The notes under the pieces: generated by a model
Told to the model about the DNA's origin: nothing
Databases searched by the model: none
Seen by the model: only the letters and a program-made list of their open reading frames with translations
Assembly: GCA_015069495.1 (NCBI GenBank)
Contig: SVIN01000006.1
Coordinates: 10,847-74,846 of the forward strand
DNA from: Clostridiales bacterium
GTDB taxonomy: Bacteria > Bacillota > Clostridia > Christensenellales > Borkfalkiaceae
Length of the DNA stretch: 64,000 nucleotides
Direction: 5' to 3'
Program-made: the position numbers and the translations under genes
Part shown: positions 513-63,283 of the stretch, piece by piece
How the letters are laid out: every line of letters starts with the position of its first letter
How positions within the stretch are numbered: the stretch's first letter is position 1

Positions 513-532
513 GGGGGCAGGTATGCGACGAA
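513..532 (+). repeat. dispersed motif copy (aroB|aroA junction)
   Basis: GGGGGCAGGTATGCGACGAA. Its ATG (523) is the aroA ORF start. Confidence 0.7.
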
Positions 533-1806
533 TACAATCAAGAGAATATTTTTCGGGTGAATTTGACCTGCCTGGAGATAAATCGATTACCCACCGCGCA
601 ATTATGTTCAACGGCGGTGCTGACGGAGAGGCGGTGATTAGCAACGCCTTGACGGGTGAGGATTGTTTGTCCACCTGCCAATGCCTGCGTGCGTTGGGTG
701 CAACGGTGGAAAGGGATGGTACGGCTTTACGAATAAAAGGCACTCCGCGGTTTCGAAGCGGGCAACGGTTGGATTGCGGAAATTCGGGTACAACCATGCG
801 TCTCTTGACGGGGTTTGTGGCTGGAAAAGGGGTTGATGTGACGTTGTTTGGCGACGAGTCCTTGTCCTCACGGCCGATGAAACGTGTAGCCGAACCGCTT
901 ACATTGCTCGGTGCGGACGTGAAAACAACGGATGGACATGCGCCCATATATATTACACCGAAAACTTTACACGGCGGGTCGGTGCAGTTAAAGGTAGCTT
1001 CCGCGCAGGTAAAAAGCGCGGTGCTGTTGGCAGGGCTTTCCGCGGAAGGGGAAACTTTTGTCAGCGAACCCGTCAAATCCCGCGATCACACCGAACGTAT
1101 GCTTTCGGCTATGGGCGCGGATATTCGCGTAGAAGGCAATGACGTGCGGGTGAAGAAAAGTAATTTGTGCGCGGTGGACGTGTGCGTTCCGTCTGATATT
1201 TCTTCGGCTGCATATTTCATGGCGCTTGGCGCATTGAAAGGGGAAACGCTGTGTAAAAACGTAGGGGTGAATCCTACACGCACGGGAATTTTGACCGCGT
1301 TCGACCGTTTGGGGGTGGAGTACGCTTTGCTCAATAAACGAGTATCGGGCGGGGAAGATATTGCGGATATTTTGGTGAAAAAATCCCATTTGCGCAGTAT
1401 TGAATTAACATCGGAAGATATTCCCGCGATGATTGACGAGTTGCCCTTGGTTGCGCTTTTGTGTGCGTTTGCAGACGGGGAAAGCCGTATTACGGGCGCG
1501 CAGGAATTGCGGGTCAAGGAGAGTGACCGTATTCGCACCACGGCAGAACTTATCCGTAATTTAGGCGGGGAATGTGAAGAACTTCCCGACGGCTTTATCA
1601 TCCGCGGCAGGAAAAAATTGCGGGGCGGAAAGGTGGACAGTTGCCTTGACCACCGCATTGCGATGACGGGCGCGGTGGGGTTGCTTGCCAGCGAAAACGG
1701 CGGGGAGATTTACCGCTCGGAATGTTGCGCAATTTCCTTCCCCGACTTCTTTGAGAAACTTGGAGAAAAAGGAAATGGACGGGGGCATGTACGCGATGAA
1801 TGGTAA
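523..1806 (+). CDS. aroA: 3-phosphoshikimate 1-carboxyvinyltransferase (EPSP synthase)
   Basis: 427-aa ORF with LPGDKSITHRA, GNSGTTMRLL and RVKESDRI motifs. The start ATG lies inside a dispersed-motif copy. The last ~12 codons are also encoded by a motif copy. Confidence 0.93.
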   Translation: MRRIQSREYFSGEFDLPGDKSITHRAIMFNGGADGEAVISNALTGEDCLSTCQCLRALGATVERDGTALRIKGTPRFRSGQRLDCGNSGTTMRLLTGFVAGKGVDVTLFGDESLSSRPMKRVAEPLTLLGADVKTTDGHAPIYITPKTLHGGSVQLKVASAQVKSAVLLAGLSAEGETFVSEPVKSRDHTERMLSAMGADIRVEGNDVRVKKSNLCAVDVCVPSDISSAAYFMALGALKGETLCKNVGVNPTRTGILTAFDRLGVEYALLNKRVSGGEDIADILVKKSHLRSIELTSEDIPAMIDELPLVALLCAFADGESRITGAQELRVKESDRIRTTAELIRNLGGECEELPDGFIIRGRKKLRGGKVDSCLDHRIAMTGAVGLLASENGGEIYRSECCAISFPDFFEKLGEKGNGRGHVRDEW

Positions 1807-2605
1807 AATGATACGGCTTGCTTTGGTTGGAAAAGACGTGGAAAAATCGCACAGCGCACGTATTCATACCTTCTTATTAAACCATTTTGGGTATGGTTGT
1901 GAATACGAATCGGTGTCCGTGGCGAAAGAGGATTTTGACAGTGTAATCGCTTACTTATTGGGGGATTTCGATGGTTTCAACGTGACCATTCCTTACAAGC
2001 GCGACGTGATGGCGTATTTGGACGAAGTGTCGGGCGATGCCTTTGACTGCGGTTCAGTGAACACCGTCTTAACGAGCACTCGGCAAGGCTTTAACACGGA
2101 CGGGGCAGGTTTTTTGCTGATGCTGCGTTTGGCGGGTATTGAGGTAAATGGTAAAAAAGTTTTGGTGCTTGGCGGCGGCGGATCAGGAAGAAGTACGGCG
2201 GCGGCATTGAAAAGAGCGGGCGCATCGGTGTCTGTTTATCAACGCCGTAGGGAGAAGTTGAAAGAACTTTGCAACGAGCTTGGCGTGACGGCTGCAGACG
2301 ACCCTGAAGCTGGCGGGTATGATATTCTCGTCAACTGTACGGGGGTGGGCATGCATGACAGTGAGGGAATTTCCCCTGTTAGCGCGCGTGCGTTTATAGG
2401 TGCAAGCCATGCGATTGATTTGATTTACCGCCCTGCGGTGTCAGAATTTTTGCGTTTGGCAAGCGAAGCGGGACTTTCCACCTTAAACGGCAAGGCAATG
2501 TTGTTTTACCAAGCATATTACGCCGATTGTATCTATTTGGGGAGAGAAACCGACGATACGGAAGCGATGGGATTATACGAAATGTTTTTAGGAGAAACGT
2601 TATGA
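1775..2605 (+). CDS. aroE: shikimate dehydrogenase
   Basis: NVTIPYK motif and GGGGSGRS dinucleotide-binding loop. The start is uncertain (ATG at 1775, 1787, 1796 or 1808); a GGAG precedes 1775. Confidence 0.85.
   Translation: MDGGMYAMNGKMIRLALVGKDVEKSHSARIHTFLLNHFGYGCEYESVSVAKEDFDSVIAYLLGDFDGFNVTIPYKRDVMAYLDEVSGDAFDCGSVNTVLTSTRQGFNTDGAGFLLMLRLAGIEVNGKKVLVLGGGGSGRSTAAALKRAGASVSVYQRRREKLKELCNELGVTAADDPEAGGYDILVNCTGVGMHDSEGISPVSARAFIGASHAIDLIYRPAVSEFLRLASEAGLSTLNGKAMLFYQAYYADCIYLGRETDDTEAMGLYEMFLGETL
1781..1800 (+). repeat. dispersed motif copy (aroA|aroE junction)
   Basis: GGGGGCATGTACGCGATGAA. Encodes the aroA tail and candidate aroE starts. Confidence 0.7.
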
Positions 2606-3030
2606 AATTTTTGGTGATGAACGGTGTGAATCTCAATTTGACGGGCATGCGCGAAAAGAGTGTGTACGGAACGGAAACTTTGGAAGAAATCAACGCCAAA
2701 ATCACGGTGTTTGCGGAAAACAACGGCGACAGCGTGGACTTTTACCAAAGCAATATCGAGGGGGAATTGGTCAATAAGTTACACGAAGCGTTTTTGCAAG
2801 GCGGGTACGATGGTATCGTGTTGAATGCAGGGGCGTACACCCATTACAGCTACGCTATTCGCGATGCGATTGCGGCAATTGATGTTCCCGTGGCGGAGGT
2901 GCATATGTCGAACGTACACGCGCGCGAGGAATTCCGTCATCACAGCGTGTTGTCCGAAGTCTGCAAAGGTGTTGTTTGCGGATTTGGGTGGAAAAGCTAC
3001 GCGATGGCGTTGTTAGGGTTGAAGAAATGA
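2602..3030 (+). CDS. aroQ: type II 3-dehydroquinate dehydratase
   Basis: MKFLVMNGVNLNLTGMRE...YG N-terminus and HMSNVHAREEFRHHS motif. AGGAG lies 7 nt upstream of ATG 2602. Confidence 0.92.
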   Translation: MKFLVMNGVNLNLTGMREKSVYGTETLEEINAKITVFAENNGDSVDFYQSNIEGELVNKLHEAFLQGGYDGIVLNAGAYTHYSYAIRDAIAAIDVPVAEVHMSNVHAREEFRHHSVLSEVCKGVVCGFGWKSYAMALLGLKK

Positions 3031-3524
3031 ACTTGATTTTATGCGGTATGATGGGCGCGGGAAAAACGTCCGTCGGCAGGGCGATTGCGGATTTGACGGG
3101 TCGCGTTTGGTATGATACCGACGATATCATTGTCAAGCAATACGGTCCGATTTCGGAGATTTTCACAAGCCACGGAGAGGAATATTTTCGTGCATTGGAA
3201 ACGGAAACGCTGAGAGGCTTGACCGCGCAGGATGATTTGGTGATTTCCGTGGGCGGGGGCTTGGTGTTGCGCCAAGAAAACGTGGATATTTTACGGCAGA
3301 ATGGTAAGATGATTTTTTTAAAAGCGACGATGGAAACGCTTGTCCAACGTTTGCGTATGGACACGGAAAGACCTTTGTTGCATACGGAAGAGGATTTGAA
3401 AACAAGGTTGGAAAAATTATTTTCCGAACGCGAGCCTATTTATGAACGCGTGGCGGATTTTACAGTGAAGGTAGACGGTAAAACCCCTGAAGAAATCGGG
3501 GCGGAAATTATGTCGATTGTGTAA
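3027..3524 (+). CDS. aroK: shikimate kinase
   Basis: GMMGAGKTSVG Walker A motif. ATGA start/stop overlap with aroQ. Confidence 0.9.
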   Translation: MNLILCGMMGAGKTSVGRAIADLTGRVWYDTDDIIVKQYGPISEIFTSHGEEYFRALETETLRGLTAQDDLVISVGGGLVLRQENVDILRQNGKMIFLKATMETLVQRLRMDTERPLLHTEEDLKTRLEKLFSEREPIYERVADFTVKVDGKTPEEIGAEIMSIV

Positions 3525-3531
3525 AACGGGC

Positions 3532-3550
3532 GGGGCAGGTATGAGATGAA
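3532..3550 (+). repeat. dispersed motif copy (aroK|SDR junction)
   Basis: GGGGCAGGTATGAGATGAA. Its second ATG is the SDR start. Confidence 0.6.
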
Positions 3551-4244: not shown

Positions 4245-4249
4245 ACAAT

Positions 4250-7239: not shown

Positions 7240-7482
7240 GTGGAACATTGTGAACAGGAATGTTTGACCGCGCTTGCGGATTGGGAAGATATTTTGGAGA
7301 AAAAGGCAAAAATTTATTCACGGCTATTGACGGATCCCGCCCTTGCAAAGATGATGGAAGATTGCAGTTTTCGTCATGAAAAACGCAAGGAGAAATTATT
7401 AGGTTTGGTGTGCGGTAAAACGGTAAAAAAGAAAAATGGGCAGGGCATGTCTGCGTTGAATGAGGGGGAAGGTGCGCAATGA
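7240..7482 (+). CDS. hypothetical small protein, translationally coupled to the next gene
   Basis: The ORF-track start (7216) lies inside the nth terminator. GTG 7240 follows GGGAGG. Its end overlaps the next start through ATGA. Confidence 0.4.
   Translation: MEHCEQECLTALADWEDILEKKAKIYSRLLTDPALAKMMEDCSFRHEKRKEKLLGLVCGKTVKKKNGQGMSALNEGEGAQ
7443..7460 (+). repeat. dispersed motif copy (end of the hypothetical ORF, before the CotF-like gene)
   Basis: GGGCATGTCTGCGTTGAA. Confidence 0.55.
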
Positions 7483-7685
7483 GGTTGGAGAAACGAGAAA
7501 TTACCTTAAACGAAAAGGATAGTTTAAAGGATTTGCTTTTACTGGAAAAAGCGTTGCTTGGTCAGTATACGGACGCGTTGACGCGGGTGACAAGGAAAGA
7601 ACTCCGCGAACGAATTTTAGAACTTGTAAAAGAAACGTCGGGAGAAATTTTTTGGATGAAAGATTTACTGGATAAAGAAAGTTAA
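7479..7685 (+). CDS. Coat F (CotF)-like domain protein
   Basis: LNEKDSLKDLLLLEKALLGQYTDALTRVT...LRE resembles the Coat F domain pattern (recognised from memory). Confidence 0.5.
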   Translation: MRLEKREITLNEKDSLKDLLLLEKALLGQYTDALTRVTRKELRERILELVKETSGEIFWMKDLLDKES

Positions 7686-12286: not shown

Positions 12287-13170
12287 TGAAAAGAGAACAA
12301 AAAATTTCACAATTTGGATTTTTTAACGTAGACAAACCGTCGGGGATTGTTTCCTCGACGGTTGTCAACAAGATAAAATGGCTGTCGGGCGCACATTGCG
12401 GACACATGGGGACGCTTGACCCTTTGGCAAGCGGTGTTTTACCCGTAGGGGTTGGCAATGCCGCGCGCCTTTTCGATTACTTCTTGGAAAAGGAAAAAGA
12501 GTATATTGCCGAGTTTACTTTTGGGGTGGATTCGGATACGCTTGATTCGACGGGAAATCTCGTACAAGGGGGGCATGTACCCGATGAAACGGAAATTTCG
12601 GACGTATTGCCCACTTTTTTCGGGGATATTATGCAGGTTCCGCCTAAGTACAGCGCAAAGAACATCAACGGCCGCAGAGGGTATGATTTGGCGCGCGCAG
12701 GGATTGAATTTGAACTCGCGCCGAAAAAAGTGCATATCTATGGTATGGAACTTCTTGGTAAAAAAGAGGACAGTGCGGATACCTTCTTGGTGAAAATCCG
12801 TTGCGGCGGCGGTACGTATATTCGTTCGTTGGGGCGGGATATCGCGGCGGCATTGGGGACGAAAGCGGTGATGAGTGCGCTTCGCCGTACTCAAAGCGGT
12901 GTTTTTACCTTGCAAAAAGCGGTACCGTTTGACTTTTTCATGCACGACCCCGCAATCGAGGATATGGAAAAATACCTCATCCCGACCGACAGTGTATTGC
13001 CCTTTGAACGGTTAAACTTGACGGAAAAGGGTACAATGCGGATTTTACAAGGCAATTTTGTATCCGTGGACGTAGCGGATGGGTTGTATAAAATTTACGA
13101 CGGTGAGTCGTTTTACGGCTTGGCGGAAGTAACGGAAGGAAAGGCGAAAGCAAAGACAAAATTATGTTAA
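12286..13170 (+). CDS. truB: tRNA pseudouridine(55) synthase
   Basis: GHMGTLDPLASGVLPV catalytic Asp motif. Start overlaps the pheT stop (TAATGA). Confidence 0.93.
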   Translation: MKREQKISQFGFFNVDKPSGIVSSTVVNKIKWLSGAHCGHMGTLDPLASGVLPVGVGNAARLFDYFLEKEKEYIAEFTFGVDSDTLDSTGNLVQGGHVPDETEISDVLPTFFGDIMQVPPKYSAKNINGRRGYDLARAGIEFELAPKKVHIYGMELLGKKEDSADTFLVKIRCGGGTYIRSLGRDIAAALGTKAVMSALRRTQSGVFTLQKAVPFDFFMHDPAIEDMEKYLIPTDSVLPFERLNLTEKGTMRILQGNFVSVDVADGLYKIYDGESFYGLAEVTEGKAKAKTKLC

Positions 13171-14030
13171 AAACGGTATGGCTGACGGAACAACCGAATA
13201 CGGAAAAGGGCGTTGCGATGTTATTGGGCGGCTTTGACGGCTTGCACGCGGGGCATCGTAAGCTTTTATCGCGCGCAAAAAACAGCGGATGTTCGGTGGG
13301 GATTATGACCATTGTCGGCGGAAAGGAAAAGGGCTTGTTTACCTTTGCGGAGCGCGAGGAAATTTTTAAGACTGCTGGCGTGGATTTTGTTTTTGAGTTG
13401 CCGTTTGAGGAAATCAAGGACTTGTCACCGCGTGCGTTTTTACAGGTATTGGAAACGCAATTTACCCCTAAGTTGTTCGTTTGCGGGACGGATTTTCGTT
13501 TTGGCGCAAAAGCGGCGGGAACGGCGGAAATGTTAAAACAAAGCACCCAGGTATGCGTTGAAGTATTGCCGCTTGTGGAAATGAGCGGTGAAAAAGTTAG
13601 TTCGTCCTATATCAAAACGTTGTTGCAAAACGGAAAAGTGGAGCAAGCGCAGGAATTGTTGACCCATGCGTTTTTTTTGGTTGGAGAAGTATATGCTGAT
13701 CGAAAAATTGGTCGGACAATCGGGTTTCCGACGGCAAATATTTCTTACCCCATAGGTAAATATCCCTTAAAAATTGGGGTTTACGAAACGCGGGTTTGTG
13801 TGGATGGTAAAACGTATAAAGGAATTACCAATTACGGCGCGCGCCCGACTTTTGCGGATGAAACGGTGGTGACGGAAACCTATTTGGACGGCTTTGACGG
13901 GGATTTGTACGGTAAGACGTTAAAGGTGGAATTTATCCGCTATCTTCGCGACGTGCGGAAATTCGACAGTATAGACGGCTTAAAAAAACAATTGGAAGAA
14001 GATTTGAGGAGAGTAAGAACAAATGATTAA
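13164..14030 (+). CDS. ribF: bifunctional riboflavin kinase / FMN adenylyltransferase
   Basis: GGFDGLHAGH, SSSYIKTLL and GFPTANI motifs. Confidence 0.93.
   Translation: MLKTVWLTEQPNTEKGVAMLLGGFDGLHAGHRKLLSRAKNSGCSVGIMTIVGGKEKGLFTFAEREEIFKTAGVDFVFELPFEEIKDLSPRAFLQVLETQFTPKLFVCGTDFRFGAKAAGTAEMLKQSTQVCVEVLPLVEMSGEKVSSSYIKTLLQNGKVEQAQELLTHAFFLVGEVYADRKIGRTIGFPTANISYPIGKYPLKIGVYETRVCVDGKTYKGITNYGARPTFADETVVTETYLDGFDGDLYGKTLKVEFIRYLRDVRKFDSIDGLKKQLEEDLRRVRTND
13546..13562 (+). repeat. dispersed motif copy inside ribF
   Basis: CCCAGGTATGCGTTGAA, read as TQVCVE. Confidence 0.6.
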
Positions 14031-23332: not shown

Positions 23333-23350
23333 GGGCAGGTATGCGACGAA
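23333..23350 (+). repeat. dispersed motif copy (dnaG|sigA spacer)
   Basis: GGGCAGGTATGCGACGAA. 18/18 identical to the aroA copy. Confidence 0.7.
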
Positions 23351-24474: not shown

Positions 24475-25166
24475 TGGGTTACGGGAAACGGATTGACACG
24501 CTGTGTTCGTTGCTCAAAAAGGCGGAAACCTTTGCCGACGTAGGGTGCGACCATGGCTATTGTTCAGAATATATGTTGAAAAACGGCTTGTGCGACCGCG
24601 CAATTTTGTCCGATATCAGCAAAGGAAGTCTTGCCAAGGCGGAAGCATTGCTTGCGCCGTACATTCGGCAAGGTAAGGCAATCTCGGTGCTTGGCGACGG
24701 TTTTTTAGGTGTGCCCAAGGATGTGGACGAGGTGTTGATTGCAGGGATGGGCGGCAGTGAAATCGTGTCCATTTTATCGGATGAAAAGTACGGCTTTATG
24801 CCCAAACGTTTCGTCTTTCAGCCCATGCACGACGCGGAAAAATTGCGTAGATATATCCTTGCAAACGGCGGATACATCGACCGTGATTTCACTTTTGAAG
24901 ATGGTAAATTTTACGACGTCATCTGCGGTGGAAGGTGTGAATGCAGGGGGCAGGTATGCGATGAAGGTTCTTATACCGATGCGGAGTACGAGTTTGGCAA
25001 AGAGAATTTGGAAACCTTTCCTGAGGCGTTTACCAAGCGCATGAACAAGCTGATTGGCAATATTGACAAATACTTGAAACAACCCCAATTGCAGGAAGCA
25101 AGTAAGGCGGATTTATTACAGAGAAAAAATCGTTTACAAGGAGTGTTGAACGGTGAAATTAAGTGA
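24474..25166 (+). CDS. trmK: tRNA (adenine22-N1)-methyltransferase
   Basis: ADVGCDHGY SAM motif and IAGMGG. Conserved sigA-trmK-nif3 order. Contains a dispersed-motif copy at 24946-24965. Confidence 0.85.
   Translation: MGYGKRIDTLCSLLKKAETFADVGCDHGYCSEYMLKNGLCDRAILSDISKGSLAKAEALLAPYIRQGKAISVLGDGFLGVPKDVDEVLIAGMGGSEIVSILSDEKYGFMPKRFVFQPMHDAEKLRRYILANGGYIDRDFTFEDGKFYDVICGGRCECRGQVCDEGSYTDAEYEFGKENLETFPEAFTKRMNKLIGNIDKYLKQPQLQEASKADLLQRKNRLQGVLNGEIK
24946..24965 (+). repeat. dispersed motif copy inside trmK
   Basis: GGGGGCAGGTATGCGATGAA, read as RGQVCDE. Confidence 0.7.
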
Positions 25167-26720: not shown

Positions 26721-27812
26721 ATGCAGAAGGTTCGCGCGGAAATCAATTTACAACATATACGGCATAACGCGGAGGCGTTTTCAAGGTTGACGAAGACGAA
26801 GCTTTGCGCAGTGGTCAAAGCAAATGCCTACGGCCATGGCGCGGAAGCGGTCACCGCCGCGTTGTGCGGGACAGCCGATTTGTTTGCGGTGGCATTGATA
26901 GAGGAAGGTTTGGCGATTCGTGTGGCGGCGTGCGGAAAAGATATCTTGGTGTTGACTCCGCCGACCGCTGAGGACGAGGTGTATGCTTTGGCGGTGAATG
27001 GCTTTACCGCGATGGCGGATTCACTGAAAACCGCCCGCTTAATTGTACGTGTTTGTGAAAAATACAACCTACCCCTCAAGGTACGTTTGAAGGTCAATAC
27101 AGGGATGAACCGTTACGGCATGAATGTGCAGACTCTAGGGAAAACTTGTAAGTTTTTACAAGGCAATCCATGGGTGCACGTTGTGGGTATGGATTCGCAT
27201 TTATGTGAGTGTAATATTACCCGCGCAGAAAAACAGTGCGTGTGTTTCGAACGAATGTTGACGATAGGGAAAAGGTATTTTCCTGCGCTCAACGCATACC
27301 TGGGTGCCACTTATGGGGCATTATTGGGTGAAAAATATCGCTTTGACGGGGTGCGTGTGGGGCTTGGTTTGTATGGATATTTACCATGTAAAGCAAACGA
27401 AACGACGGGTGTGGCGTTGGAAACAGTCAAAAGGCTTGACCTGAAAAAAGCTATGGCTGTATATGCCAAAACGATTGCATGCCGAACATATCAATTTGGC
27501 GGAATAGGTTACGGTGAAGAGAAAGCGCCCGAACGGTCGAAAGATTTGACTGTGATTAGGGCGGGATATGCAGATGGTTTTTTACGACAACGGGAAAATG
27601 GTACGGACGGTTGGCAAACCCAAGCGGGTGTATCGTGTATGGACGCTTGCATTCGTCAGGGCAGGTTCTTACAAGGACAATATTTGCCGATTATGACGGA
27701 TGCGGACGAGGTGGCAACCGTGACGGGTACGGTTGCGTATGAAGTTTTGTGCGCGGCTACCCGACGCGCGGAGTTTATTTATGACAAGGAATCTTCGTTT
27801 TGCGGACGGTGA
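26721..27812 (+). CDS. alr: alanine racemase
   Basis: AVVKANAYGHG PLP-lysine motif. Confidence 0.9.
   Translation: MQKVRAEINLQHIRHNAEAFSRLTKTKLCAVVKANAYGHGAEAVTAALCGTADLFAVALIEEGLAIRVAACGKDILVLTPPTAEDEVYALAVNGFTAMADSLKTARLIVRVCEKYNLPLKVRLKVNTGMNRYGMNVQTLGKTCKFLQGNPWVHVVGMDSHLCECNITRAEKQCVCFERMLTIGKRYFPALNAYLGATYGALLGEKYRFDGVRVGLGLYGYLPCKANETTGVALETVKRLDLKKAMAVYAKTIACRTYQFGGIGYGEEKAPERSKDLTVIRAGYADGFLRQRENGTDGWQTQAGVSCMDACIRQGRFLQGQYLPIMTDADEVATVTGTVAYEVLCAATRRAEFIYDKESSFCGR
27288..27304 (-). repeat. dispersed motif copy inside alr (reverse orientation)
   Basis: Reverse complement is CCCAGGTATGCGTTGAG, near-identical to the ribF copy. Confidence 0.6.
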
Positions 27813-29144: not shown

Positions 29145-29162
29145 GGGCATGTACGCGTTGAA
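29145..29162 (+). repeat. dispersed motif copy (membrane protein|rsmD spacer)
   Basis: GGGCATGTACGCGTTGAA. Confidence 0.7.
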
Positions 29163-32146: not shown

Positions 32147-32169
32147 TTCAACGCATACATGGTATGCCC
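32147..32169 (-). repeat. long palindromic variant (pheA|patatin spacer, reverse orientation)
   Basis: Reverse complement is GGGCATACCATGTATGCGTTGAA. GCATAC-CAT-GTATGC inverted repeat. Confidence 0.7.
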
Positions 32170-34299: not shown

Positions 34300-34322
34300 G
34301 GCCATACCATGTATGCGTTGAA
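34300..34322 (+). repeat. long variant (rarA|lipoprotein spacer)
   Basis: GGCCATACCATGTATGCGTTGAA. Confidence 0.7.
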
Positions 34323-35899: not shown

Positions 35900-35922
35900 G
35901 GGCGTACCATGTACGCGTTGGA
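35900..35922 (+). repeat. long palindromic variant (lipoprotein|nrdR spacer)
   Basis: GGGCGTACCATGTACGCGTTGGA. GCGTAC-CAT-GTACGC inverted repeat. Confidence 0.7.
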
Positions 35923-44661: not shown

Positions 44662-45630
44662 ATGCAACATACTTTACAACAAATTGCAGATAGAATCAAG
44701 CAGGCAAACAGTGTGTTAATTGTGACGCATATGCGTCCTGACGGGGATGCCATTGGCGGTGCGTTGGCGCTTTCGCGCGCGCTGGATTTTCTCAAAATAC
44801 TCAACCAGGTATGCGTTGAATCGGATATTCCGTCCAATTTGACGTTTTTGGAAGGCGTCGAAAAAGTACAAAAGAAACCGCAAGACGAATTTGATTTATT
44901 GGTGACGGTGGATTGCAGTGATGAACAGCGTTTGGGCGGGTTATCCGAAACGTTTTTTATCGCAAAACGCAAGAAAATTGATACGATAAATATAGATCAT
45001 CACGTGTCGAATAAGCTGTTTGCAAAGTATAATTACATGCATCCTTGCTCGGCAAATTGTATGCATATTTGTGGACTCATCGAATACATGGGTGCCCCGA
45101 TTGATAAAAAAACAGCGGAGTATCTTTTGGTTGGGCTGTTGACCGATTCGGGAAATTTCAGTCACGATGACGTGACGGAAGAAACGATGGTTTTGGCGGG
45201 TAAGCTGATCAAAGCGGGTGCGGATATCTGCTACTGTAACGAAATGCTGTTCAAACGCCAAACCAAGGCGCGTGCGATGCTGTATGCACGTACGATGACG
45301 GGGATGCGTTTTTACCACGATAACCGTTTTGCGGTGATTGTTGTGACGAAGAAGAATATGGACGATTGCGGGGCGGATGCAAGTATGACGGAAGGGTTCG
45401 TTGATTTTCCTTTGAACGTGGATACGGTGGAAATTGCCGCGTCCGTGTTGGAAGTGAAAAGGGGGCAATATAAAATTTCCCTGCGTTCGAAACATTACGC
45501 GGATATGAACCGCTTGGCGGGCGTTTATGGCGGCGGCGGGCACGTGCGCGCGGCGGGCTGTATGCTGTTTGGTGAGATGGAGGAAGTGCTGGATAAGATC
45601 TCCTTTACCGCATCGCAATATTTAGATTAA
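44662..45630 (+). CDS. nrnA: DHH/DHHA1 phosphoesterase (NrnA-like)
   Basis: HMRPDGDAIG, NIDHH and GGGGHVRAAG motifs. Confidence 0.85.
   Translation: MQHTLQQIADRIKQANSVLIVTHMRPDGDAIGGALALSRALDFLKILNQVCVESDIPSNLTFLEGVEKVQKKPQDEFDLLVTVDCSDEQRLGGLSETFFIAKRKKIDTINIDHHVSNKLFAKYNYMHPCSANCMHICGLIEYMGAPIDKKTAEYLLVGLLTDSGNFSHDDVTEETMVLAGKLIKAGADICYCNEMLFKRQTKARAMLYARTMTGMRFYHDNRFAVIVVTKKNMDDCGADASMTEGFVDFPLNVDTVEIAASVLEVKRGQYKISLRSKHYADMNRLAGVYGGGGHVRAAGCMLFGEMEEVLDKISFTASQYLD
44805..44820 (+). repeat. dispersed motif copy inside nrnA
   Basis: CCAGGTATGCGTTGAA, read as QVCVE. Confidence 0.6.
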
Positions 45631-51466: not shown

Positions 51467-53134
51467 ATGAGTAGCAAGATTGCATTGAAAAGAGAAAGGG
51501 TGGATAAACTGTTTAATTTCCGTCCCTTCCTTTTCGGTGCAATCTTTTTTGCTTTTGGCATCGTCTTCTCTCTGGCGCATTATTTACATGAGGTGCATGC
51601 CGTGTGGATGTTGTGCGTGTTGCCTTGCGCCCTGATTCCCTTTTTCTTCTGTTCCGAAAAACGGCAATGGCTTCGGGTTGGATATGCCATGCTTGGTTTG
51701 TGTGTATGCTTCTTGGTCGGCTTTTTCGGGTTTGCCTTACAGATGGAACGTTATCAACGTGTGGAAAGTACGTATGATTGCTATTTCACAGGCAAAGTGG
51801 TGGAAATGCGGGAAGGTTATGGTGAAGTCGGTTTGGTGTTGGATGATTTATCCGTGAACGGAGAAGTATATCAATGTAAACTCATCGCGTACATGCCTAT
51901 GTCCTTTTGTGGAAATATCGGGTTATCCGACGTGTTGACTTTACATGGCGATATTGAAAAAATCGGTTTGGACGAGGATGGATTTGGACGTTATGCGAAG
52001 GATTTTGGTAAACGCATTTTTCTATCGTCCAATCGCCCCGAGGGTAGAAAAACGGGGCATGCGTTTGATTTATTTTTAATGTTGAACGCTCGCGCTCGTC
52101 AGGTGATTGAGGCAGGAATGGACAAAACACCCGCCGCAGTCACGAAAGGGGTATTGCTTGGCGATACCACGGGGATAGAGTCGGGATTGTATGAAAATAT
52201 CCGTTACGGCGGGGTGGCTCATATCTTTGCCGTCTCGGGGTTGCACGTGGGGGCACTGTTTGCCTTTTGTCTGTTATTGATGAAGAAGACGGGATTGAAA
52301 CGAGCGCCTGCACTTTTACAATTCATCTTAACGGCAAGCGTGCTGTTTCTTTATGCAGGGATGTGCGCGTTTACGCCGTCCGTTGTCCGCGCAAGTGTTA
52401 TGTGCTTGGTTGGATATATGTGCAAGTTGGTATTGGTTAAATTCGACTTCTTACAATCGTTGGGTTTATCTGCGATTGCGGTTTTGTTTTTTACACCTTC
52501 ATCATTGTTTACGGCAGGGTTTCAACTCTCCTTTTCGGCGTGCTTTGGGATTGCGTTTTTGGCGAAACCCATAGGGCAGGTATTTGATGAAGTTGCAAAA
52601 GGCTTTCGATATTTCTTCCCGCAAAAGCCTACCTCCGCAGAAATCGAAGCAATGAAAAACGATGATACCATGCCCCCTCGTTTGAGCACCCGCGCTTATC
52701 GTGCTGTGTCTTCGTTCTTGGCGGTCAGTATGAGTGCGCAAATTTTTACCGCACCGTTTTTGCTGTACTATTTCGGATATGTGTCGGGTTGGGCGTTGTT
52801 GCTCAATTGCATCTTCGTGCCTTTTATCAGTTTGATTTTCTCGCTGTTGTTGGCAGCGGTGGTGTTGGCGTGTCTATTGCCGACGGCTTGGGCAAGCGTT
52901 TTGTTGTTCCTGCCAAACACTTTGTGGTCGGCTGTACTGCTGTTATTTGAGGCGGTTGATTTTACTTCGTTTGCCTTGGAAATAGAAAACGTTTCGATAT
53001 CCATGGCGGCGGTCTATATCTTGGGATTCTTGTTCTGTACGGACAAATGGAACGTAAGCAAGTGGACGCGCTTTGTGCTTGCGATGGCATGTTTTTGTGT
53101 GTTTGGCGTGGGCATGTATGCGTTGAACGTATAA
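51467..53134 (+). CDS. comEC: ComEC/Rec2-family membrane protein with no metallo-beta-lactamase domain
   Basis: GVAHIFAVSGLHVG competence-domain signature. Many TM segments. No HxHxDH motif. 555 aa. Confidence 0.8.
   Translation: MSSKIALKRERVDKLFNFRPFLFGAIFFAFGIVFSLAHYLHEVHAVWMLCVLPCALIPFFFCSEKRQWLRVGYAMLGLCVCFLVGFFGFALQMERYQRVESTYDCYFTGKVVEMREGYGEVGLVLDDLSVNGEVYQCKLIAYMPMSFCGNIGLSDVLTLHGDIEKIGLDEDGFGRYAKDFGKRIFLSSNRPEGRKTGHAFDLFLMLNARARQVIEAGMDKTPAAVTKGVLLGDTTGIESGLYENIRYGGVAHIFAVSGLHVGALFAFCLLLMKKTGLKRAPALLQFILTASVLFLYAGMCAFTPSVVRASVMCLVGYMCKLVLVKFDFLQSLGLSAIAVLFFTPSSLFTAGFQLSFSACFGIAFLAKPIGQVFDEVAKGFRYFFPQKPTSAEIEAMKNDDTMPPRLSTRAYRAVSSFLAVSMSAQIFTAPFLLYYFGYVSGWALLLNCIFVPFISLIFSLLLAAVVLACLLPTAWASVLLFLPNTLWSAVLLLFEAVDFTSFALEIENVSISMAAVYILGFLFCTDKWNVSKWTRFVLAMACFCVFGVGMYALNV
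53110..53127 (+). repeat. dispersed motif copy at the comEC 3' end
   Basis: GGGCATGTATGCGTTGAA. Encodes the terminal GMYALN of the ComEC ORF. Confidence 0.7.
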
Positions 53135-57562: not shown

Positions 57563-57584
57563 TTCAACGCGTACATGGTATAGG
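57563..57584 (-). repeat. long variant in the convergent spacer (esterase / deacetylase)
   Basis: Reverse complement is CCTATACCATGTACGCGTTGAA. Confidence 0.65.
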
Positions 57585-57585
57585 T

Positions 57586-58428
57586 CTATCGTTTTCTAAG
57601 GCGAACGTATTCTCCGCCATTTTTCAAGGTGCATCCATGCGCTTTGGCAAGGGCGGATACACTGACAATTTGATATCCCGCGTTTTTCAAATCGGGTAAC
57701 AGCCGTTTCAAAGCTTCTACCGTATTGGGGTATCCGTCGTGCATCAAAACAATGGCCCCCGACGATACGCGGTCGTATACGCTGTGGTAAATTTCTTCCG
57801 CTGACACTTTACTCCAATCCATGGTATCCACGTTCCAATTGATGATAGGGGCGGAGGTTTGCGCTTTTACCGCATCATTGATAAAACCGAAAGGCGGGCG
57901 TAATAGATGTTGCTTTTTACCGTCTATCTTGGATAAAATTGCATCGGTGGTATCAATTTCTGCGTGTAATTCCTCATTGGGGAGCGTGGTCAAATCCAAA
58001 TGGGATTGAGTATGATTGCCCAGTTCAAAACCCAGTGCGTTTGCAGCGTGTAGGGTTTGGATGGAATCTTCCGTAACCAAGCCGCCGTTGACAAATAAGG
58101 TTGCCGTTGCCTTGCAATCAGGGTTATTTTCGTTGTATTCGGCAAAGACTGCGAAGATGTTTTCTAAGGTTTTTGCAGGGGAATCATCGAAGGTGAATGC
58201 AATTAATTTTCGGTTTTGTTGGATATAGGAAATGTCAATATCTGAAACGTCCCAAATGGGATTTTGTGAATTCGGCGTACCCTCTAAAGGGATGATTTCT
58301 TCGAAAAAATCATCAAATGATGGGGGCATGTACACGTTGAATTGTAAATTGTTGGCCTTTTTACCCGAACAACAGGGCAAAAAGAAAAGGCAAGCGGATA
58401 ATAAAATCGCACAAAAATATCTATACAT
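57586..58428 (-). CDS. polysaccharide deacetylase (NodB domain) lipoprotein
   Basis: FTFDD, HTQSH and LMHD motifs. N-terminal MYRYFCAILLSACLFFLPCCSG signal/lipobox. Start chosen at the internal Met. Confidence 0.85.
   Translation of the reverse strand: MYRYFCAILLSACLFFLPCCSGKKANNLQFNVYMPPSFDDFFEEIIPLEGTPNSQNPIWDVSDIDISYIQQNRKLIAFTFDDSPAKTLENIFAVFAEYNENNPDCKATATLFVNGGLVTEDSIQTLHAANALGFELGNHTQSHLDLTTLPNEELHAEIDTTDAILSKIDGKKQHLLRPPFGFINDAVKAQTSAPIINWNVDTMDWSKVSAEEIYHSVYDRVSSGAIVLMHDGYPNTVEALKRLLPDLKNAGYQIVSVSALAKAHGCTLKNGGEYVRLRKR
58322..58341 (+). repeat. dispersed motif copy inside the deacetylase gene (antisense to the gene)
   Basis: GGGGGCATGTACACGTTGAA. Confidence 0.6.
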
Positions 58429-60682: not shown

Positions 60683-61133
60683 AAAAACCAGCGTTTTTGA
60701 TATCGCGGTCAGTCGAACGTTTCAAATCGCGTTCGGCAATCGATTGTTTTTTGTCGTAGGTGTGTTTACCTCGGCAGAGAGCAATTTCCATCTTAACCAA
60801 CGAGCCCTTAAAATACATTTTCAAAGGCACTAAAGTATAACCCTGACGATTGATTTTGCCTGCAATTTTGGCAATTTCACCTTTATGAAGTAATAATTTT
60901 CGGTCTCTGCGAGTGTCCTTGGTGCTAAAAGCGTCGGACTTGTCGTATAAAGCAATATGCATATTTTTCACCGAAACGTCACTGCCTCGCACAAAACAGA
61001 AACTGTCGTTCATATTGACGTTGCCTGCGCGTAAGGATTTGATTTCGTTGCCTTCCAATACGATGCCTGCCTCATATTTTTCTTCGATAAAGTATTCAAA
61101 AGAAGCGCTTTTATTGTTTGTGATAATTTTCAT
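60681..61133 (-). CDS. smpB: SsrA-binding protein
   Basis: 150 aa. NKSASFEYFIEEKYEAGIVL, GYTLVPLKMYF and KHTYDKK motifs. Confidence 0.96.
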   Translation of the reverse strand: MKIITNNKSASFEYFIEEKYEAGIVLEGNEIKSLRAGNVNMNDSFCFVRGSDVSVKNMHIALYDKSDAFSTKDTRRDRKLLLHKGEIAKIAGKINRQGYTLVPLKMYFKGSLVKMEIALCRGKHTYDKKQSIAERDLKRSTDRDIKNAGF

Positions 61134-61153
61134 AATAGACTCCGTTTTTTGCG

Positions 61154-61176
61154 TTCAACGCGTACATGGGTGGGGG
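61154..61176 (-). repeat. dispersed motif copy (rnr|smpB spacer)
   Basis: Reverse complement is CCCCCACCCATGTACGCGTTGAA. Confidence 0.65.
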
Positions 61177-61177
61177 A

Positions 61178-63283
61178 TTACAGCTTTTTCAACAATTTAA
61201 ACTCGGTTCTGCGACGGTAAAAATCTACGTCGTCAACCTTTACCTTTAACCGTTCGCCGATGGTGTAGGTTTCCGTGTGACCGACCAAACGGAAACGATC
61301 AGCGTCATAGGAAAATTCACCGTAAAGAGATTCAATAGGGATAAACCCTTCAATGGTATTGGGCAATTCTGCAAACAATCCAAATGAGGTGACGCCTGAA
61401 ATGATGGCTTCGTATACTTGCCCGATTCGTTCGCTCATATACATGGCCATATACAAATCATCCACGTCGCGTTCGGCATCGGTTGCGCGCCGTTCGCGGT
61501 CGGAAGATTGTTTCGCTGCTGTGGAAACAAATTCGCTGAAACGCTCTACCGCTTCGGGATATCCACCATTTAACACCAACTTGATGATGCGGTGAATGCA
61601 AAGGTCGGGGTAACGGCGAATGGGGGAAGTAAAGTGGCAGTAACAAGCACTTGCCAAACCAAAATGTCCCAAATTTTCCGTGTCATAACGCGCCTTTTGC
61701 ATGGAACGAAGCATCACGCGATTGAGCACCGAATAGCTGGGCAAATTCTCCGCCGATTTCAGGATGTTTTGATAATCGTAGGGTTTTACGTCCTGCGCAG
61801 AGAAGCGCGCAGTCAATCCCAAGGTTTGAGCAAAAGCGCGGAATACGGTGGCTTTTTCTTCCGTTGGCTTTTCGTGCACGCGATATACGAAAGGCGCTTC
61901 AATCGAATGCATGTATTCTGCAACCGTTTCATTGGCCAATACCATAAAGGCTTCAATGATTTGATAGGAGAATTCCCGTTGATAATCGGGGATTTTGATT
62001 TCATCGTTTTCCAAGATAATTTTGGCTTCTTTGACATCCAACGAAATGTTGCCTTTTTTCTCGCGCATCGTCTGTAAAATATGGGTTAATTCACCGAAGA
62101 GGCATACCATGTCTTTGACGAGTGCATATTTTTGGCAAGTTTCATGGTCATTATCAAGGATTTTTCCGACTTCGGTATAGGTCATTTTATACTTCGAACG
62201 GATAATTCCTTCTACGATTTCACTGCTTTTCACGTTGCCTTTTTTGTCGATGGTCATAAGGCAAGATAAAGTCAAACGGTCTTCTCCCTCGTTTAAGGAA
62301 CAGATGCCGTTGGAGAGGGCACGGGGGAGCATGGGGAATACGCGGTCGGGAAAATAGACGCTGGTACCGCGTTCCAATGCTTCCAAATCCAATGGAGAAC
62401 GATATTCCACGTAATGGGTGACGTCGGCAATATGCACGCCAAGTAAATACTCTTCACCCACTTTTTCCAAAGATACCGCATCGTCAATATCGCGGGTATC
62501 CGCACCGTCGATGGTGACGATGAGTTTGTCTCGGAAATCTCTGCGCGCGAGGATGTCTTCTTGTGTAATCGGGCGGGACGCTTGTTTATCCGCTTCTTTA
62601 AGAACACGCGGGGGAAATTCCTCTTTGAGGTCGTACGAACGGATGATGGACAATTCTTCTGCAAAGAAGTCGTCCTCTTCACCAAGCACCTCAATGATTT
62701 CACCGCCAGGGCATTTGCCTTGCGGGTAAGAAGTGATTTTTGCGACCGCTTTGACTCCGCTTTTGATATGGGAGCAATCGGAAAGGGGGATATAGATTTC
62801 TGTAGAGAAACGTTTTTCATCGGGGAAGAGATAACCTGCGCGGCGATCTCTGCGGAAGGTGCCGACGATTTTGGTGTAACCGCGTTCGAGGATAGCAATT
62901 ACGTTGCCTTCATCATCGCTTCTGCCCCATGATTTTTCCATTAAAACGGTGTCGCCGTGTAAGGCGCCGTGTAAATTTTTATGGGGGATGAAATAATCGT
63001 TTTCGTTGCGTTCTTGACCCTCAGGGGTGAGAAATGCAAACCCGCGTTCGTTGCCGCAAATCGTGCCTTTGATAAGCCCCAATTGTGCAATCGTTCCATA
63101 CCTGCCCCCGTCATTTCGATAAATTTTACCTTCATCGCATAAAGCTTGTAATAGGTCGAAGAGTCTGTTTTTCTCCCGATAGGGGATTTGTAAAATTTTC
63201 AAAATTTCCGTCATTGTTTTACCGGCAAGCGTACCGTCTTCAAACGATGAGAAAAGGGATTCTTTCGCGTTCACAAAAATCAC
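61178..63283 (-). CDS. rnr: ribonuclease R
   Basis: 701 aa. RNB motifs (TIDGADTRDIDDAVS, HFGLAS..YCHFTSPIRRYPD) and a C-terminal S1 domain. Confidence 0.95.
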   Translation of the reverse strand: MIFVNAKESLFSSFEDGTLAGKTMTEILKILQIPYREKNRLFDLLQALCDEGKIYRNDGGRYGTIAQLGLIKGTICGNERGFAFLTPEGQERNENDYFIPHKNLHGALHGDTVLMEKSWGRSDDEGNVIAILERGYTKIVGTFRRDRRAGYLFPDEKRFSTEIYIPLSDCSHIKSGVKAVAKITSYPQGKCPGGEIIEVLGEEDDFFAEELSIIRSYDLKEEFPPRVLKEADKQASRPITQEDILARRDFRDKLIVTIDGADTRDIDDAVSLEKVGEEYLLGVHIADVTHYVEYRSPLDLEALERGTSVYFPDRVFPMLPRALSNGICSLNEGEDRLTLSCLMTIDKKGNVKSSEIVEGIIRSKYKMTYTEVGKILDNDHETCQKYALVKDMVCLFGELTHILQTMREKKGNISLDVKEAKIILENDEIKIPDYQREFSYQIIEAFMVLANETVAEYMHSIEAPFVYRVHEKPTEEKATVFRAFAQTLGLTARFSAQDVKPYDYQNILKSAENLPSYSVLNRVMLRSMQKARYDTENLGHFGLASACYCHFTSPIRRYPDLCIHRIIKLVLNGGYPEAVERFSEFVSTAAKQSSDRERRATDAERDVDDLYMAMYMSERIGQVYEAIISGVTSFGLFAELPNTIEGFIPIESLYGEFSYDADRFRLVGHTETYTIGERLKVKVDDVDFYRRRTEFKLLKKL
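62101..62118 (+). repeat. partial long variant inside rnr (antisense to the gene)
   Basis: GGCATACCATGTCTTTGA. Shares the 12-nt GGCATACCATGT with the 32147 copy. Confidence 0.4.
63097..63109 (-). repeat. half motif inside rnr
   Basis: Reverse complement is GGGGGCAGGTATGG. Confidence 0.3.

Follow-up and report, generated by a model that had tools for sequence, protein, structure and literature searches.

A short, asymmetric DNA word of 15-18 bp, (GGG)CAKGTAYGCGWTGAA, recurs throughout the 64-kb window (the whole stretch of DNA analyzed here, to which all coordinates refer) and is kept by uncultured gut Clostridia that form a family-level clade (Candidatus Scatosoma and its relatives). We tentatively propose, with a confidence just short of even, that it is a candidate DNA uptake specificity sequence, whose copies would secondarily serve as terminator stems and occasionally as a ribosome-binding site with its start codon. 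A DNA-level signal such as an uptake sequence was the third of three hypotheses offered by an earlier, sequence-only reading of this DNA, and it is the best-fitting of the three, with the function one that we infer.

Within the window, 12 matches to GGGCAKGTAYGCGWTGAA were found at no more than two mismatches, against 0.02 expected, and the core GTAYGCGNYGAA has 12 exact matches, against 0.1 expected. Alignment of the core-bearing sites yields 21 copies, 15 on the plus strand and 6 on the minus strand, which bears out, position by position and far above expectation, the earlier claim of a dispersed motif with about 21 copies in 64 kb. All copies share the 15-nt core CAKGTAYGCGWTGAA, preceded by GGG or (T/A)AC. 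The previously described long variant also exists, in the corrected spelling GGGCATACC-AK..., and holds a 15-nt palindrome (GCATACC-A-GGTATGC); the string GGGGGCAGG given for the copy at 23333 was misread, the actual sequence being GTGGGCAGG.... Because the likeness between copies stops at the word and short A/T tracts, the motif is not a MITE. The reported bias toward gene junctions holds as well, with 12 of the 21 copies touching a spacer or gene end in a window that is only 6.8% non-coding (binomial p = 2e-9).

A search of 185,579 species genomes found exact matches almost confined to this one clade, in which at least 52 genomes at species level carry the motif (the window organism and at least 51 other MAGs), at a density of about 1 site per 3-10 kb. 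Matches outside the clade were isolated singles, mostly in high-GC genomes of other phyla. Viral contigs gave few matches (n = 9). In a clade sample of 98 sequences (739 kb), which contains 173 copies, 94 copies (54%) are intergenic, as compared with about 14% non-coding sequence, while the 79 copies within genes (46%) comprise 61 in sense and 18 in antisense orientation. Both stop-free frames are occupied in genes, and the third frame is used only where its TGA is destroyed. Gene 3' ends are preferred, with copies lying a median of 23 nt past the stop codon, and the density per kb falls from 2.55 in convergent spacers (23 copies) through 1.12 in co-directional to 0.11 in divergent ones (p = 2e-9). 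Divergent spacers are as copy-poor as coding sequence. The clade also shows dialects: the K position is T in 7 of 12 window copies, compared with 18 of 158 elsewhere (p = 3e-4).

Several window copies illustrate this placement. The dnaG/rpoD spacer holds GGGCAGGTATGCGACGAA (23333..23350, plus strand), which begins 16 nt past the dnaG stop and is kept in clade locus L063, and GGGCATGTACGCGTTGAA (29145..29162, plus) lies 3 nt past a stop codon upstream of rsmD, where it is kept in L027 and L090 though the spacer around it is unalignable. At a junction of small ORFs, GGGCATGTCTGCGTTGAA, with one mismatch (7443..7460, plus), occupies the end of ORF 7240-7482, for which no Pfam match was found, just ahead of ORF 7479-7685. 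Long-variant copies are located between pheA and the patatin gene, on the strand opposite to both (GGGCATACCATGTATGCGTTGAA, 32147..32169, minus), past an mgsA-like gene with its stop at 34296 (GGCCATACCATGTATGCGTTGAA, 34300..34322, plus), upstream of nrdR (GGGCGTACCATGTACGCGTTGGA, 35900..35922, plus), and in a convergent spacer immediately 3' of the stop of a deacetylase gene (57563..57585, minus); this last copy is directly followed by a terminator-like hairpin (57560-57530) and is also found in L125 and L129. The rnr/smpB spacer carries ACCCATGTACGCGTTGAA (61154..61171, minus), sense to both lagging-strand genes and again present in L125.

The copies within genes indicate that the constraint acts on DNA. 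In nrnA, AACCAGGTATGCGTTGAA (44803..44820, plus, frame 0, NQVCVE) recurs at this position in six of the seven unbiased syntenic loci, and L126 has a better copy at the site of a weak antisense one, ACCCATGTATTCGATGAG (45076..45093, minus). Three copies lie in comEC: the antisense AGGCATGTACGCGATGAG (51881..51898, minus), whose site is occupied in 7 of 7 syntenic loci, with at most two mismatches in six and three in L128; GGGCAGGTATTTGATGAA (52574..52591, plus, frame 0, GQVFDE), matched with at most two mismatches in 5 of 7 and degraded in L127; and GGGCATGTATGCGTTGAA (53110..53127, plus), over the final codons (stop 53132-53134) and shared with L125. Third-codon-position identity in motif codons reaches 0.93 for the nrnA copy (0.53 gene-wide) and 0.86 for the antisense comEC copy (0.43 gene-wide), with a further value of 0.76, and this constraint holds from 85% down to 42% ComEC identity. 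Full copies occur at the position of the ribF copy ACCCAGGTATGCGTTGAA (13545..13562, plus, frame 0, TQVCVE) in L059, L066 and L105, and exact copies in L125 and L126 at that of GGGCATGTACACGTTGAA (58324..58341, plus), which lies in antisense orientation within the 5' portion of the deacetylase gene. The weakest member of the set, the near-copy GGGCATGTACCCGATGAA in truB (12571..12588, plus, frame 0, GGHVPDE), lies in a region that orthologues also keep as protein. Orthologues without a copy show substitutions and no indel (L014 for ribF; L129 for nrnA and for comEC at 52574..52591), as do L063 and L090, which differ by substitutions only at ACCCAGGTATGCGTTGAG (27288..27305, minus), antisense within the alanine racemase gene. 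Moreover, alignment to solved homologues accommodates the motif-encoded residues of RibF, NrnA and TruB without any insertion in the query. Copies within genes thus arose mostly by substitution, not insertion.

Flanks and orientation point in the same direction. A/T tracts flank the core at about -16, -8, +24 and +35, which makes the whole element about 55 bp long; at position -7, A or T occurs in 97% of copies, alike for intergenic, sense and antisense copies, and the remaining tracts likewise persist within genes. Copies favor the leading strand by 120 to 25 (83%), a ratio of 4.8 that equals ((1+s)/(1-s))^6 for a word with 8 G and 2 C at a skew s of about 0.14, and near-matches show a trend matching this bias. 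The sense fraction of 0.75 compares with 0.72 expected from strand bias alone (calculated from the counts), and in the clade set all four copies associated with lagging-strand genes are antisense, so that orientation tracks the replication strand and not transcription. The motif is therefore read on double-stranded DNA, not RNA, and is orientation-neutral once skew is allowed for. The earlier observation that copies point the same way as the downstream gene is correct, but not as a gene-linked signal, because GC skew and gene-strand bias suffice to produce it.

Under the uptake proposal, we infer that the reader of the motif would be the uptake machinery and that these bacteria would be competent. 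A competence receptor for DNA at the cell surface, in monoderms a ComG-type pseudopilus subunit or ComEA, would bind word-carrying fragments; these would enter through ComEC and recombine into the chromosome, and uptake bias together with recombination would spread and keep the word wherever it is tolerated, mainly just past stop codons and, within genes, in the two stop-free frames. Some copies, in our reading, have acquired secondary roles: inverted pairs act as terminator stems, and where operon genes are closely packed the G-rich half at the 5' side and the internal ATG double as ribosome-binding site and start codon. ComEC is the DNA-import channel of competence systems, and, as context, the window contains a short-form comEC (51467..53134, plus) with DUF4131 and Competence domains and without the metallo-beta-lactamase domain (Pfam PF03772, E = 6e-49; NCBIfam TIGR00360 above its cut-off, the full-length equivalog TIGR00361 below). 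Its lack of the nuclease domain counts against the uptake reading. In clade locus L065, two copies flank a ComF-family gene; however, homologues of ComEC and ComF are common also in bacteria not known as competent, and no pseudopilus, ComEA or DprA genes were seen in the approximately 0.9 Mb of scattered clade sequence screened. To our knowledge, sequence-specific uptake is not known in any Gram-positive bacterium.

The comparison with established uptake sequences nevertheless argues for this proposal. About half of DUS/USS copies lie in terminators, inverted pairs form terminators, and copies in coding sequence are frame-biased, with one orientation favored within reading frames (PMC1852404; PMC2346458; bioRxiv 10.1101/2025.10.24.684340). 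The clade motif matches these published features, and we propose that it is functionally analogous to the DUS of Neisseria and the USS of Pasteurellaceae, although it is several-fold sparser (about 1 per 3-10 kb) than their classical density of about 1 per kb. The avoidance of divergent spacers exceeds what simple tolerance predicts and counts against uptake; combined with how deeply copy positions are conserved, it would also suit an intracellular site at gene 3' ends that is bound by a protein and kept by selection.

Such a site is the main rival explanation, which we consider rather unlikely: the word would bind a lineage-specific chromosomal protein with an intracellular role, possibly as a gyrase or topology site, a domain boundary or a roadblock to transcription where genes end, and would be kept by selection and not by uptake drive. 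Constraint on the DNA itself, seen at identical orthologous sites even between deeply diverged loci, is consistent with this, as are the asymmetric core with A/T tracts, suggestive of protein-induced bending, the moderate density with copies spaced roughly at random (coefficient of variation 0.9), and the approximately 20-fold enrichment of convergent spacers, in which positive supercoils build up and polymerases collide, over divergent ones. However, we know of no nucleoid or topology site that is an 18-bp asymmetric word present at hundreds of sites, even in genes despite an amino-acid cost; parS, matS and the sites of Noc and SlmA are palindromes present in tens of copies. Furthermore, inverted pairs, frame use and dialects between clades together make up what has been published as the hallmark of uptake sequences.

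It is less probable still that the motif is a REP/BIME-like or otherwise mobilized short hairpin, a self-spreading terminator family whose single copies are decayed halves. Perfect hairpins with a 13-bp stem, GGGCAGGTATGCG-TTSAA-CGCATACCTGCCC followed by a T run, do occur in L005, L006, L012, L053 and L068, along with many degenerate partner arms, and the placement past stop codons and between convergent genes is that of REP elements. The inverted pairs have a loop of 5-6 nt and a tail rich in T; their folding energies are -25 to -33 kcal/mol (z-scores from -5 to -9), and single copies show no RNA structure (z about 0). At one site, trmK, where GGGCAGGTATGCGATGAA (24948..24965, plus, frame 0, GQVCDE) occupies a variable loop, whether the copy is there tracks an 18-nt indel: it is found in L063 and missing from L027 (18-nt gap) and L090 (9-nt gap). 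Against this explanation, the unit itself is no palindrome, only 17 of the 94 intergenic copies (about 18%, over a 2% background) have a complementary arm matched at 9 or more of 13 positions, and 46% of copies lie in genes, where comparison with orthologues and solved homologues mostly shows no indel. The 5' arm is also far better conserved than the 3' arm, which hairpin need does not explain, and neither target-site duplications nor longer shared flanks are present.

The other two hypotheses of the sequence-only reading, a portable Shine-Dalgarno-plus-ATG cassette and an RNA processing or protein-binding site marking cistron boundaries, are largely refuted as a primary function, and we regard an RNA-level role of this kind as very improbable. 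In favor of such a role, three successive junctions of the aro operon hold a copy, and the GGCAGGT segment of the motif resembles GGAGGT. In the aroB/aroA spacer, GGGCAGGTATGCGACGAA (515..532, plus) begins 10 nt past the aroB stop (504) and contains the predicted aroA start, the ATG at 523, with position 3 of the EPSP_synthase profile at residue 6; GGGCATGTACGCGATGAA (1783..1800, plus), at the aroA/aroE overlap, spans the final aroA codons (stop 1804-1806) and the aroE start region; and GGGCAGGTATGAGATGAA (3533..3550, plus), in the aroK/SDR spacer, begins 8 nt past the aroK stop and supplies the SDR start (ATG at 3546), with position 1 of the adh_short profile at residue 2. The internal ATG is thus the predicted start for aroA and SDR, as had been claimed, and we read this provision of a start region as a secondary use. 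Only 8 of 59 co-directional spacer copies overlap a predicted start, the convergent-spacer copies have no downstream start, and 79 copies, 18 of them antisense, lie in genes. Conserved synonymous sites in antisense copies, orientation set by the replication strand at a skew-level ratio, unstructured single copies and the absence of an Rfam match speak equally against an RNA element.

That the word is a polar signal oriented with replication, comparable to Chi, KOPS or SRS, or else a promoter read by a special sigma factor, is the least probable explanation, given that the leading-strand preference is no more than mononucleotide skew predicts, inverted pairs place both orientations at one site, known polar motifs are only 5-8 nt long, the TTGAA end resembling a -35 element lacks a suitably spaced -10 hexamer (one occurs at offsets 35-37 in 2-3 of 171 copies), the GGCA-to-TTG spacing exceeds the established sigma-54 consensus by 2 nt, and divergent, promoter-containing spacers are avoided.

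The superficial likeness to the neisserial DUS was earlier taken as probably coincidental: ATGCGTTGAA equals ATGCCGTCTGAA minus two C, a curiosity and not evidence of relatedness. What these gut Clostridia carry is a word distributed like the uptake sequences of Neisseria and Haemophilus, which, if the uptake proposal is correct, would be a signal so far unreported in Gram-positives.

Matches to GGGCAKGTAYGCGWTGAA at up to two mismatches occur 12 times in the 64 kb of the window, where 0.02 are expected, and for the core GTAYGCGNYGAA there are 12 exact matches where 0.1 would be expected. Collecting all core-bearing sites yielded 21 copies, 15 on the forward and 6 on the reverse strand, in agreement, apart from small corrections, with the copy number of about 21 and the coordinates proposed in the sequence-only reading. 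The invariant part is CAKGTAYGCGWTGAA, which is preceded on its 5' side by GGG or, in one subfamily, by (T/A)AC. The long form distinguished in that reading is GGGCATACC-AKGTAYGCGTTGAA, and it holds a 15-nt palindrome. This long subfamily, GGGC(A/G)TACCAKGTAYGCGTTGAA, with the perfect palindrome GCATACC-A-GGTATGC inside, is found in the window at 32147-32169, 34300-34322, 35900-35922 and 57563-57585, and also in another locus of the clade (L115, about 585-612); it is more frequent in the window organism than elsewhere. Outside the 21 copies, a half-motif, GGGGGCAGGTATGG, lies in the 5' part of the RNase R gene (window 63097-63142, reverse strand), with a core-like string, TTATGCGATGAA, 21 nt upstream of it; together they may represent a decayed or nascent copy of the motif.

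By Pfam annotation the window is a housekeeping region, with 46% G+C, a strong positive GC skew and nearly all genes on the forward strand. It carries, in order, aroB-aroA-aroE-aroQ-aroK, pheS/T, truB, ribF, efp and dnaG-rpoD-trmK, followed by nusA-infB-rbfA-nrnA, an 1882-aa helicase-nuclease gene, comEC-holA, and then smpB, rnr and secG. No Rfam family, tRNA gene or tmRNA gene was found in the window, and the exact protein encoded by its rpoD is recorded only in a JGI metagenome. The bias towards gene junctions that had been noticed by eye is borne out, since 12 of the 21 are in contact with a spacer or with the end of a gene, in a window that is only 6.8% non-coding (p = 2e-9).

To describe the distribution of the motif across bacteria, the exact 18-mer was scanned in one genome per species for 185,579 species, and at least 114 stretches matched. 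About 95 of the 114 listed stretches belong to MAGs of Candidatus Scatosoma sp., a taxon placed in Clostridia incertae sedis by NCBI, or of unnamed Clostridia and Clostridiales bacteria, and the hosts whose guts yielded the clade MAGs are human, ruminant and poultry. The rest of the list consists of isolated one-off matches, for the most part in other phyla and in genomes of high GC content. Not counting the window organism, the exact 18-mer is present in at least 51 species-level MAGs of the clade. The 2.9 million viral contigs of IMG/VR contain nine exact matches, which by a rough estimate is about chance level, and a phage origin is rejected on this count. An assembly artefact is rejected as well: assemblies made independently by several laboratories contain the motif, which occupies orthologous sites and is in frame within conserved proteins. 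The confinement of the matches to one clade and the small number of viral matches thus indicate that the motif belongs to this bacterial clade, and not to a mobile element or an assembly artefact. A dialect shift is observed in the window organism, where the variable G/T position of the motif is T in 7 of 12 copies, compared with 18 of 158 elsewhere (p = 3e-4).

The placement of the motif was analyzed in a clade sample consisting of the window and 97 further loci (739 kb), with genes called by a codon-usage ORF caller and copies mapped at up to two mismatches (n = 173). Intergenic copies number 94 (54%, against about 14% non-coding sequence), with 61 copies inside genes in sense and 18 in antisense orientation. 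The 46% of copies inside genes (79/173) lie in genes backed by Pfam or PDB matches, at a density of about 0.12 per kb (79 copies in about 639 kb of coding sequence), and spacers are approximately 7-fold denser in the motif than genes. Sense copies within genes are read in frame 0 (GQVCVE or GQVRVE) or frame 2 (GRYAL[NK]), and the third frame is used only where its TGA has mutated. When intergenic copies are classified by their flanking genes, with the motif read left to right, 44 are sense/sense, 15 antisense/antisense, 23 convergent and 2 divergent, which corresponds to 2.55 copies per kb of convergent spacer, 1.12 of co-directional and 0.11 of divergent spacer (convergent versus divergent, p = 2e-9); copies are therefore avoided in divergent spacers as strongly as in coding sequence. 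In co-directional spacers the median gap is 23 nt from the preceding stop and 63 nt to the next start, for either direction of the motif. Many copies are placed after a stop codon and ahead of a distinct terminator hairpin, as is the window copy at 57563-57585, which precedes a hairpin at 57560-57530.

That the motif is read at the level of DNA is shown by four results: its flanks, the substitution origin of its in-gene copies, its conservation in unbiased orthologues, and its intergenic conservation. First, 97% of copies have A or T at position -7, whether they are intergenic or lie in genes in sense or in antisense, and the A/T tracts at -17 to -15, +23 to +25 and +34 to +37 are retained inside coding sequence. 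Second, the motif-encoded residues of RibF, NrnA and TruB align to solved homologues with no insertion in the query, and the motif-encoded stretch of an ABC ATPase reads GQVCVEGKDI, at a position whose usual consensus we take to be G-x-I-x-I-D-G-x-D-I. Third, because loci ascertained by the pattern are biased by their mode of discovery, orthologue conservation was retested on seven syntenic loci fetched through ComEC homologues (85% to 42% identity) without consulting the motif. The nrnA copy is found at the same position in six of these seven loci, the comEC antisense copy in all seven (in one of them, L128, with three mismatches) and the comEC sense copy in five at up to two mismatches. Third-codon-position identity in the motif codons reaches 0.93 in nrnA, 0.86 for the comEC antisense copy and 0.76 for the sense copy, compared with gene-wide values of 0.53 for nrnA and 0.43 for comEC, or 0.60 and 0.54 in amino-acid-invariant columns. 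Where two of these copies are missing, in L129, the same columns read EVCIE and ADVLFA, with no indel. Fourth, the copy after the stop at 29141 is kept in two other loci (L027 and L090) although the spacer around it fails to align. Small indels separate the loci at a few sites: those in trmK measure 18 and 9 nt, and L063 has one relative to the window, so substitution is the rule and not an absolute. At up to two mismatches, the 152 kb of unbiased loci contain 15 copies; the density is 1 per 5-10 kb in these loci and about 1 per 3 kb in the window.

The same syntenic region displays two features of its own. The 1882-aa gene with DUF4011, AAA_11, AAA_12 and MTES_1575 domains (window 45791-51439), located between nrnA and comEC, is present in six of eight syntenic loci, including the window; it is missing in L128 and L129 and thus has the look of an inserted accessory gene that may serve in defence. 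Over 34 kb of this gene there is a single motif copy, compared with 34 copies over 139 kb elsewhere (p = 0.005), a depletion that is suggestive only, given that orthologous sites are counted repeatedly. In several of the loci, a conserved ORF of 34-35 codons directly follows the gene for a DisA-type diadenylate cyclase (L126 13760-13864, L127 13725-13829, L128 13774-13878, L129 13761-13868).

Some intergenic copies are arranged as inverted pairs. In five loci (L005, L006, L012, L053 and L068) the 5-nt TTSAA is shared by a forward and a reverse copy, which together form GGGCAGGTATGCG-TTSAA-CGCATACCTGCCC with a T run behind it. A complementary arm, defined by at least 9 of 13 paired positions and a loop of 5-6 nt, accompanies 17 of the 94 intergenic copies (18%), compared with 2 of the 79 in-gene copies and 2% of random positions, and in the 10 nt that follow, the paired intergenic copies average 6.1 T. 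Folding energies of paired copies lie between -25 and -33 kcal/mol (z-scores between -5 and -9), while folding of single copies revealed no structure (z about 0) and no self-complementarity. The 5' arm of the hairpin is consistently better conserved than the 3' arm, an asymmetry that would not be expected under a pure stem requirement.

Taken together, these properties lead us to propose, tentatively, that the motif is a DNA uptake signal, which was the best-fitting of the three ideas raised in the sequence-only reading. What remains after the comparisons is a word recognised on duplex DNA, made and kept by drive or selection wherever it is tolerated, and among described classes DNA uptake sequences appear to be the only one with the full set of properties, judged by analogy with published examples (PMC1852404, PMC2346458, bioRxiv 10.1101/2025.10.24.684340). 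The uptake-like traits found here are a word common to a family-level clade, conserved with dialect variation and rare outside; over-representation by orders of magnitude (12 versus 0.02); both orientations, with in-gene copies confined to stop-free frames and created by substitution; stability at orthologous sites; approximately 7-fold enrichment in spacers; enrichment in 3' spacers; close inverted copies that serve as terminator hairpins; and A/T flanks of the USS kind.

The DUS of Neisseriaceae (AT-GCCGTCTGAA and its dialects) resembles the motif in being short, asymmetric, massively over-represented and family-wide with species dialects, about 7-fold denser in spacers, paired in inverted terminator hairpins after genes, and restricted in its coding frames. 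It differs in belonging to Pseudomonadota, whereas the motif belongs to Bacillota, in its core of 10-12 bp versus 15-18 bp, and in its density of about 1 per kb versus about 1 per 3-10 kb; the receptor of the DUS in Neisseria is ComP. The match in letters between the two, ATGC(C)GT(C)TGAA, is probably a coincidence. The USS of Pasteurellaceae (AAGTGCGGT with flanking AT tracts) shares with the motif a conserved core, A/T flanks that are also present in coding copies, an origin of copies through base substitutions inside codons, the persistence of many copies at orthologous sites in different species, and inverted pairs in terminators. The motif, however, has its A/T tracts on both sides of a longer core, a lower density, and a strong strand bias, though one accounted for by GC skew.

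Three observations weigh against an uptake signal: the density does not reach the classical 1 per kb, copies are as scarce in divergent spacers as in coding sequence, and positional conservation is deep. These would suit a site for a lineage-specific chromosomal DNA-binding protein with a role other than uptake, which we consider less likely: an asymmetric site of about 55 bp, maintained by selection at conserved positions within genes and shortly downstream of them, that would organise termination, supercoiling or chromosome domains and that would have no described counterpart. The low density, the avoidance of divergent spacers and the deep positional conservation keep such a selected 3'-end binding site a serious rival. 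On informal comparison, none of the known operators cre, LexA, Rex, NrdR, Spo0A and IHF aligns with the motif. As for competence genes, the window encodes a short-form ComEC in a gene with three motif copies, and in L065, a locus of a clade MAG, a gene for a ComF-family phosphoribosyltransferase (2329-3169; E = 5e-24, below the NCBIfam cut-off) stands between two motif copies. Both families are widespread in bacteria that are not known to be competent, so the presence of these genes is weak support for an uptake signal. In about 0.9 Mb of scattered clade sequence, a regular-expression search for the motifs of prepilins and ComGA-type ATPases found no prepilin or ComGA-like gene; since it returned only one spurious antisense ORF and one ComF-family gene, the screen is uninformative about competence. 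The ComEC of the clade (window 51467-53134) is a short form of about 555 aa that consists of DUF4131 and Competence domains, without the C-terminal metallo-beta-lactamase nuclease domain, and nearly all full-length proteins among its 120 best homologues have about the same length.

A REP-like mobile hairpin appears improbable. The REP/BIME elements of Gammaproteobacteria do resemble the motif in being located downstream of stop codons and in convergent spacers, alone or as inverted pairs, and in their capacity to form hairpins. They are, however, themselves imperfect palindromes, strictly extragenic and tied to RAYT transposases, whereas the motif is no palindrome, has a partner arm in 18% of intergenic copies only, and places 79 of 173 copies in genes, mostly without indels and made by substitution. 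A MITE or longer repeat is likewise rejected, as the aligned flanks of the 21 window and 173 clade copies have only the A/T tracts in common and contain no terminal repeats or target duplications.

Readings at the RNA level are very improbable. The aro operon would favour them: its three junctions aroB/aroA, aroA/aroE and aroK/SDR (window 515-3550) each consist almost wholly of one motif copy, and the internal ATG is indeed the predicted start of aroA (523) and of the SDR gene (3546). These three junction copies genuinely supply the start region. As a general role this fails: among 59 copies in co-directional spacers, no more than 8 reach into a predicted start, and we regard the starts in the aro operon as a secondary use of a G-rich, ATG-containing word. 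Both the portable SD-plus-ATG cassette and the RNA processing or cistron-boundary site suggested earlier are contradicted by the in-gene and antisense copies, the convergent spacers, an orientation driven by composition and the unstructured single copies; an Rfam search of ten hairpin-form loci returned no family besides tRNAs.

Equally remote are polar and promoter readings. Polarity is strong, with 120 copies on the leading and 25 on the lagging strand (4.8:1). The word, however, contains 8 G and 2 C, and a mean skew s of 0.14 then predicts a ratio of ((1+s)/(1-s))^6, about 5 (4.8-5.4:1). The better the near-match, the higher its lead:lag ratio: with 11 mismatches it is 1.16, with 5-6 about 2, and the rise is smooth and extrapolates to about 4 at zero. 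GC skew in the window is very strong, at 0.07-0.25 per 4 kb, and about 83% of coding bases in the clade sample are on the leading strand; this by itself gives any G-rich 18-mer a strand asymmetry of about 5:1. Where a copy can be assigned to a gene direction, the leading:lagging counts are 93:21 for leading-strand genes and 4:0 for lagging-strand genes, and the sense fraction in co-directional spacers is 0.75, with 0.72 expected from the two strand biases alone. Since ratio and sense fraction equal the bias expectation, orientation tracks base composition and not transcription, and the earlier remark that 11 of 13 copies point the same way as the downstream gene loses its functional meaning. 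Chi, KOPS, SRS and the cyanobacterial HIP1 (GCGATCGC) are, like the motif, over-represented words that enter coding sequence by substitution, but their length is 5-8 nt, HIP1 is palindromic, and Chi and KOPS have functional polarity where that of the motif does not exceed the skew expectation. A sigma-70 promoter lacks -10 enrichment (TANNNT follows the -35-like hexamer TTGAAN by 16-18 nt in 2-3 of 171 copies) and is contradicted by the avoidance of divergent spacers, a window-wide promoter consensus scan found no more sites than in shuffled sequence, and for a sigma-54 promoter the spacing does not fit.

To our knowledge, sequence-selective DNA uptake is known in two proteobacterial families only, Neisseriaceae and Pasteurellaceae. 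A full-text literature search found neither the motif word nor repeats of Scatosoma described, and no uptake sequence reported for Bacillota; the uptake-sequence papers cited here (PMC1852404, PMC2346458, bioRxiv 10.1101/2025.10.24.684340) describe such signals for those two families only. The motif matters for annotation, because start and stop codons as well as terminators overlap with its copies, and it is in either case a practical marker of the clade. If it is not an uptake signal, it would be a genome-wide DNA-level signal that overrides synonymous-site drift and shapes amino-acid sequences. If it is one, monoderm bacteria would have gained self-preferring natural transformation through an independent evolutionary origin, natural competence would extend to an abundant, uncultured clade of Clostridia that lives in the gut of humans, ruminants and poultry, and the motif would offer a ready-made tag for the genetic tractability of the clade and for tracing within-clade gene flow in metagenomes.
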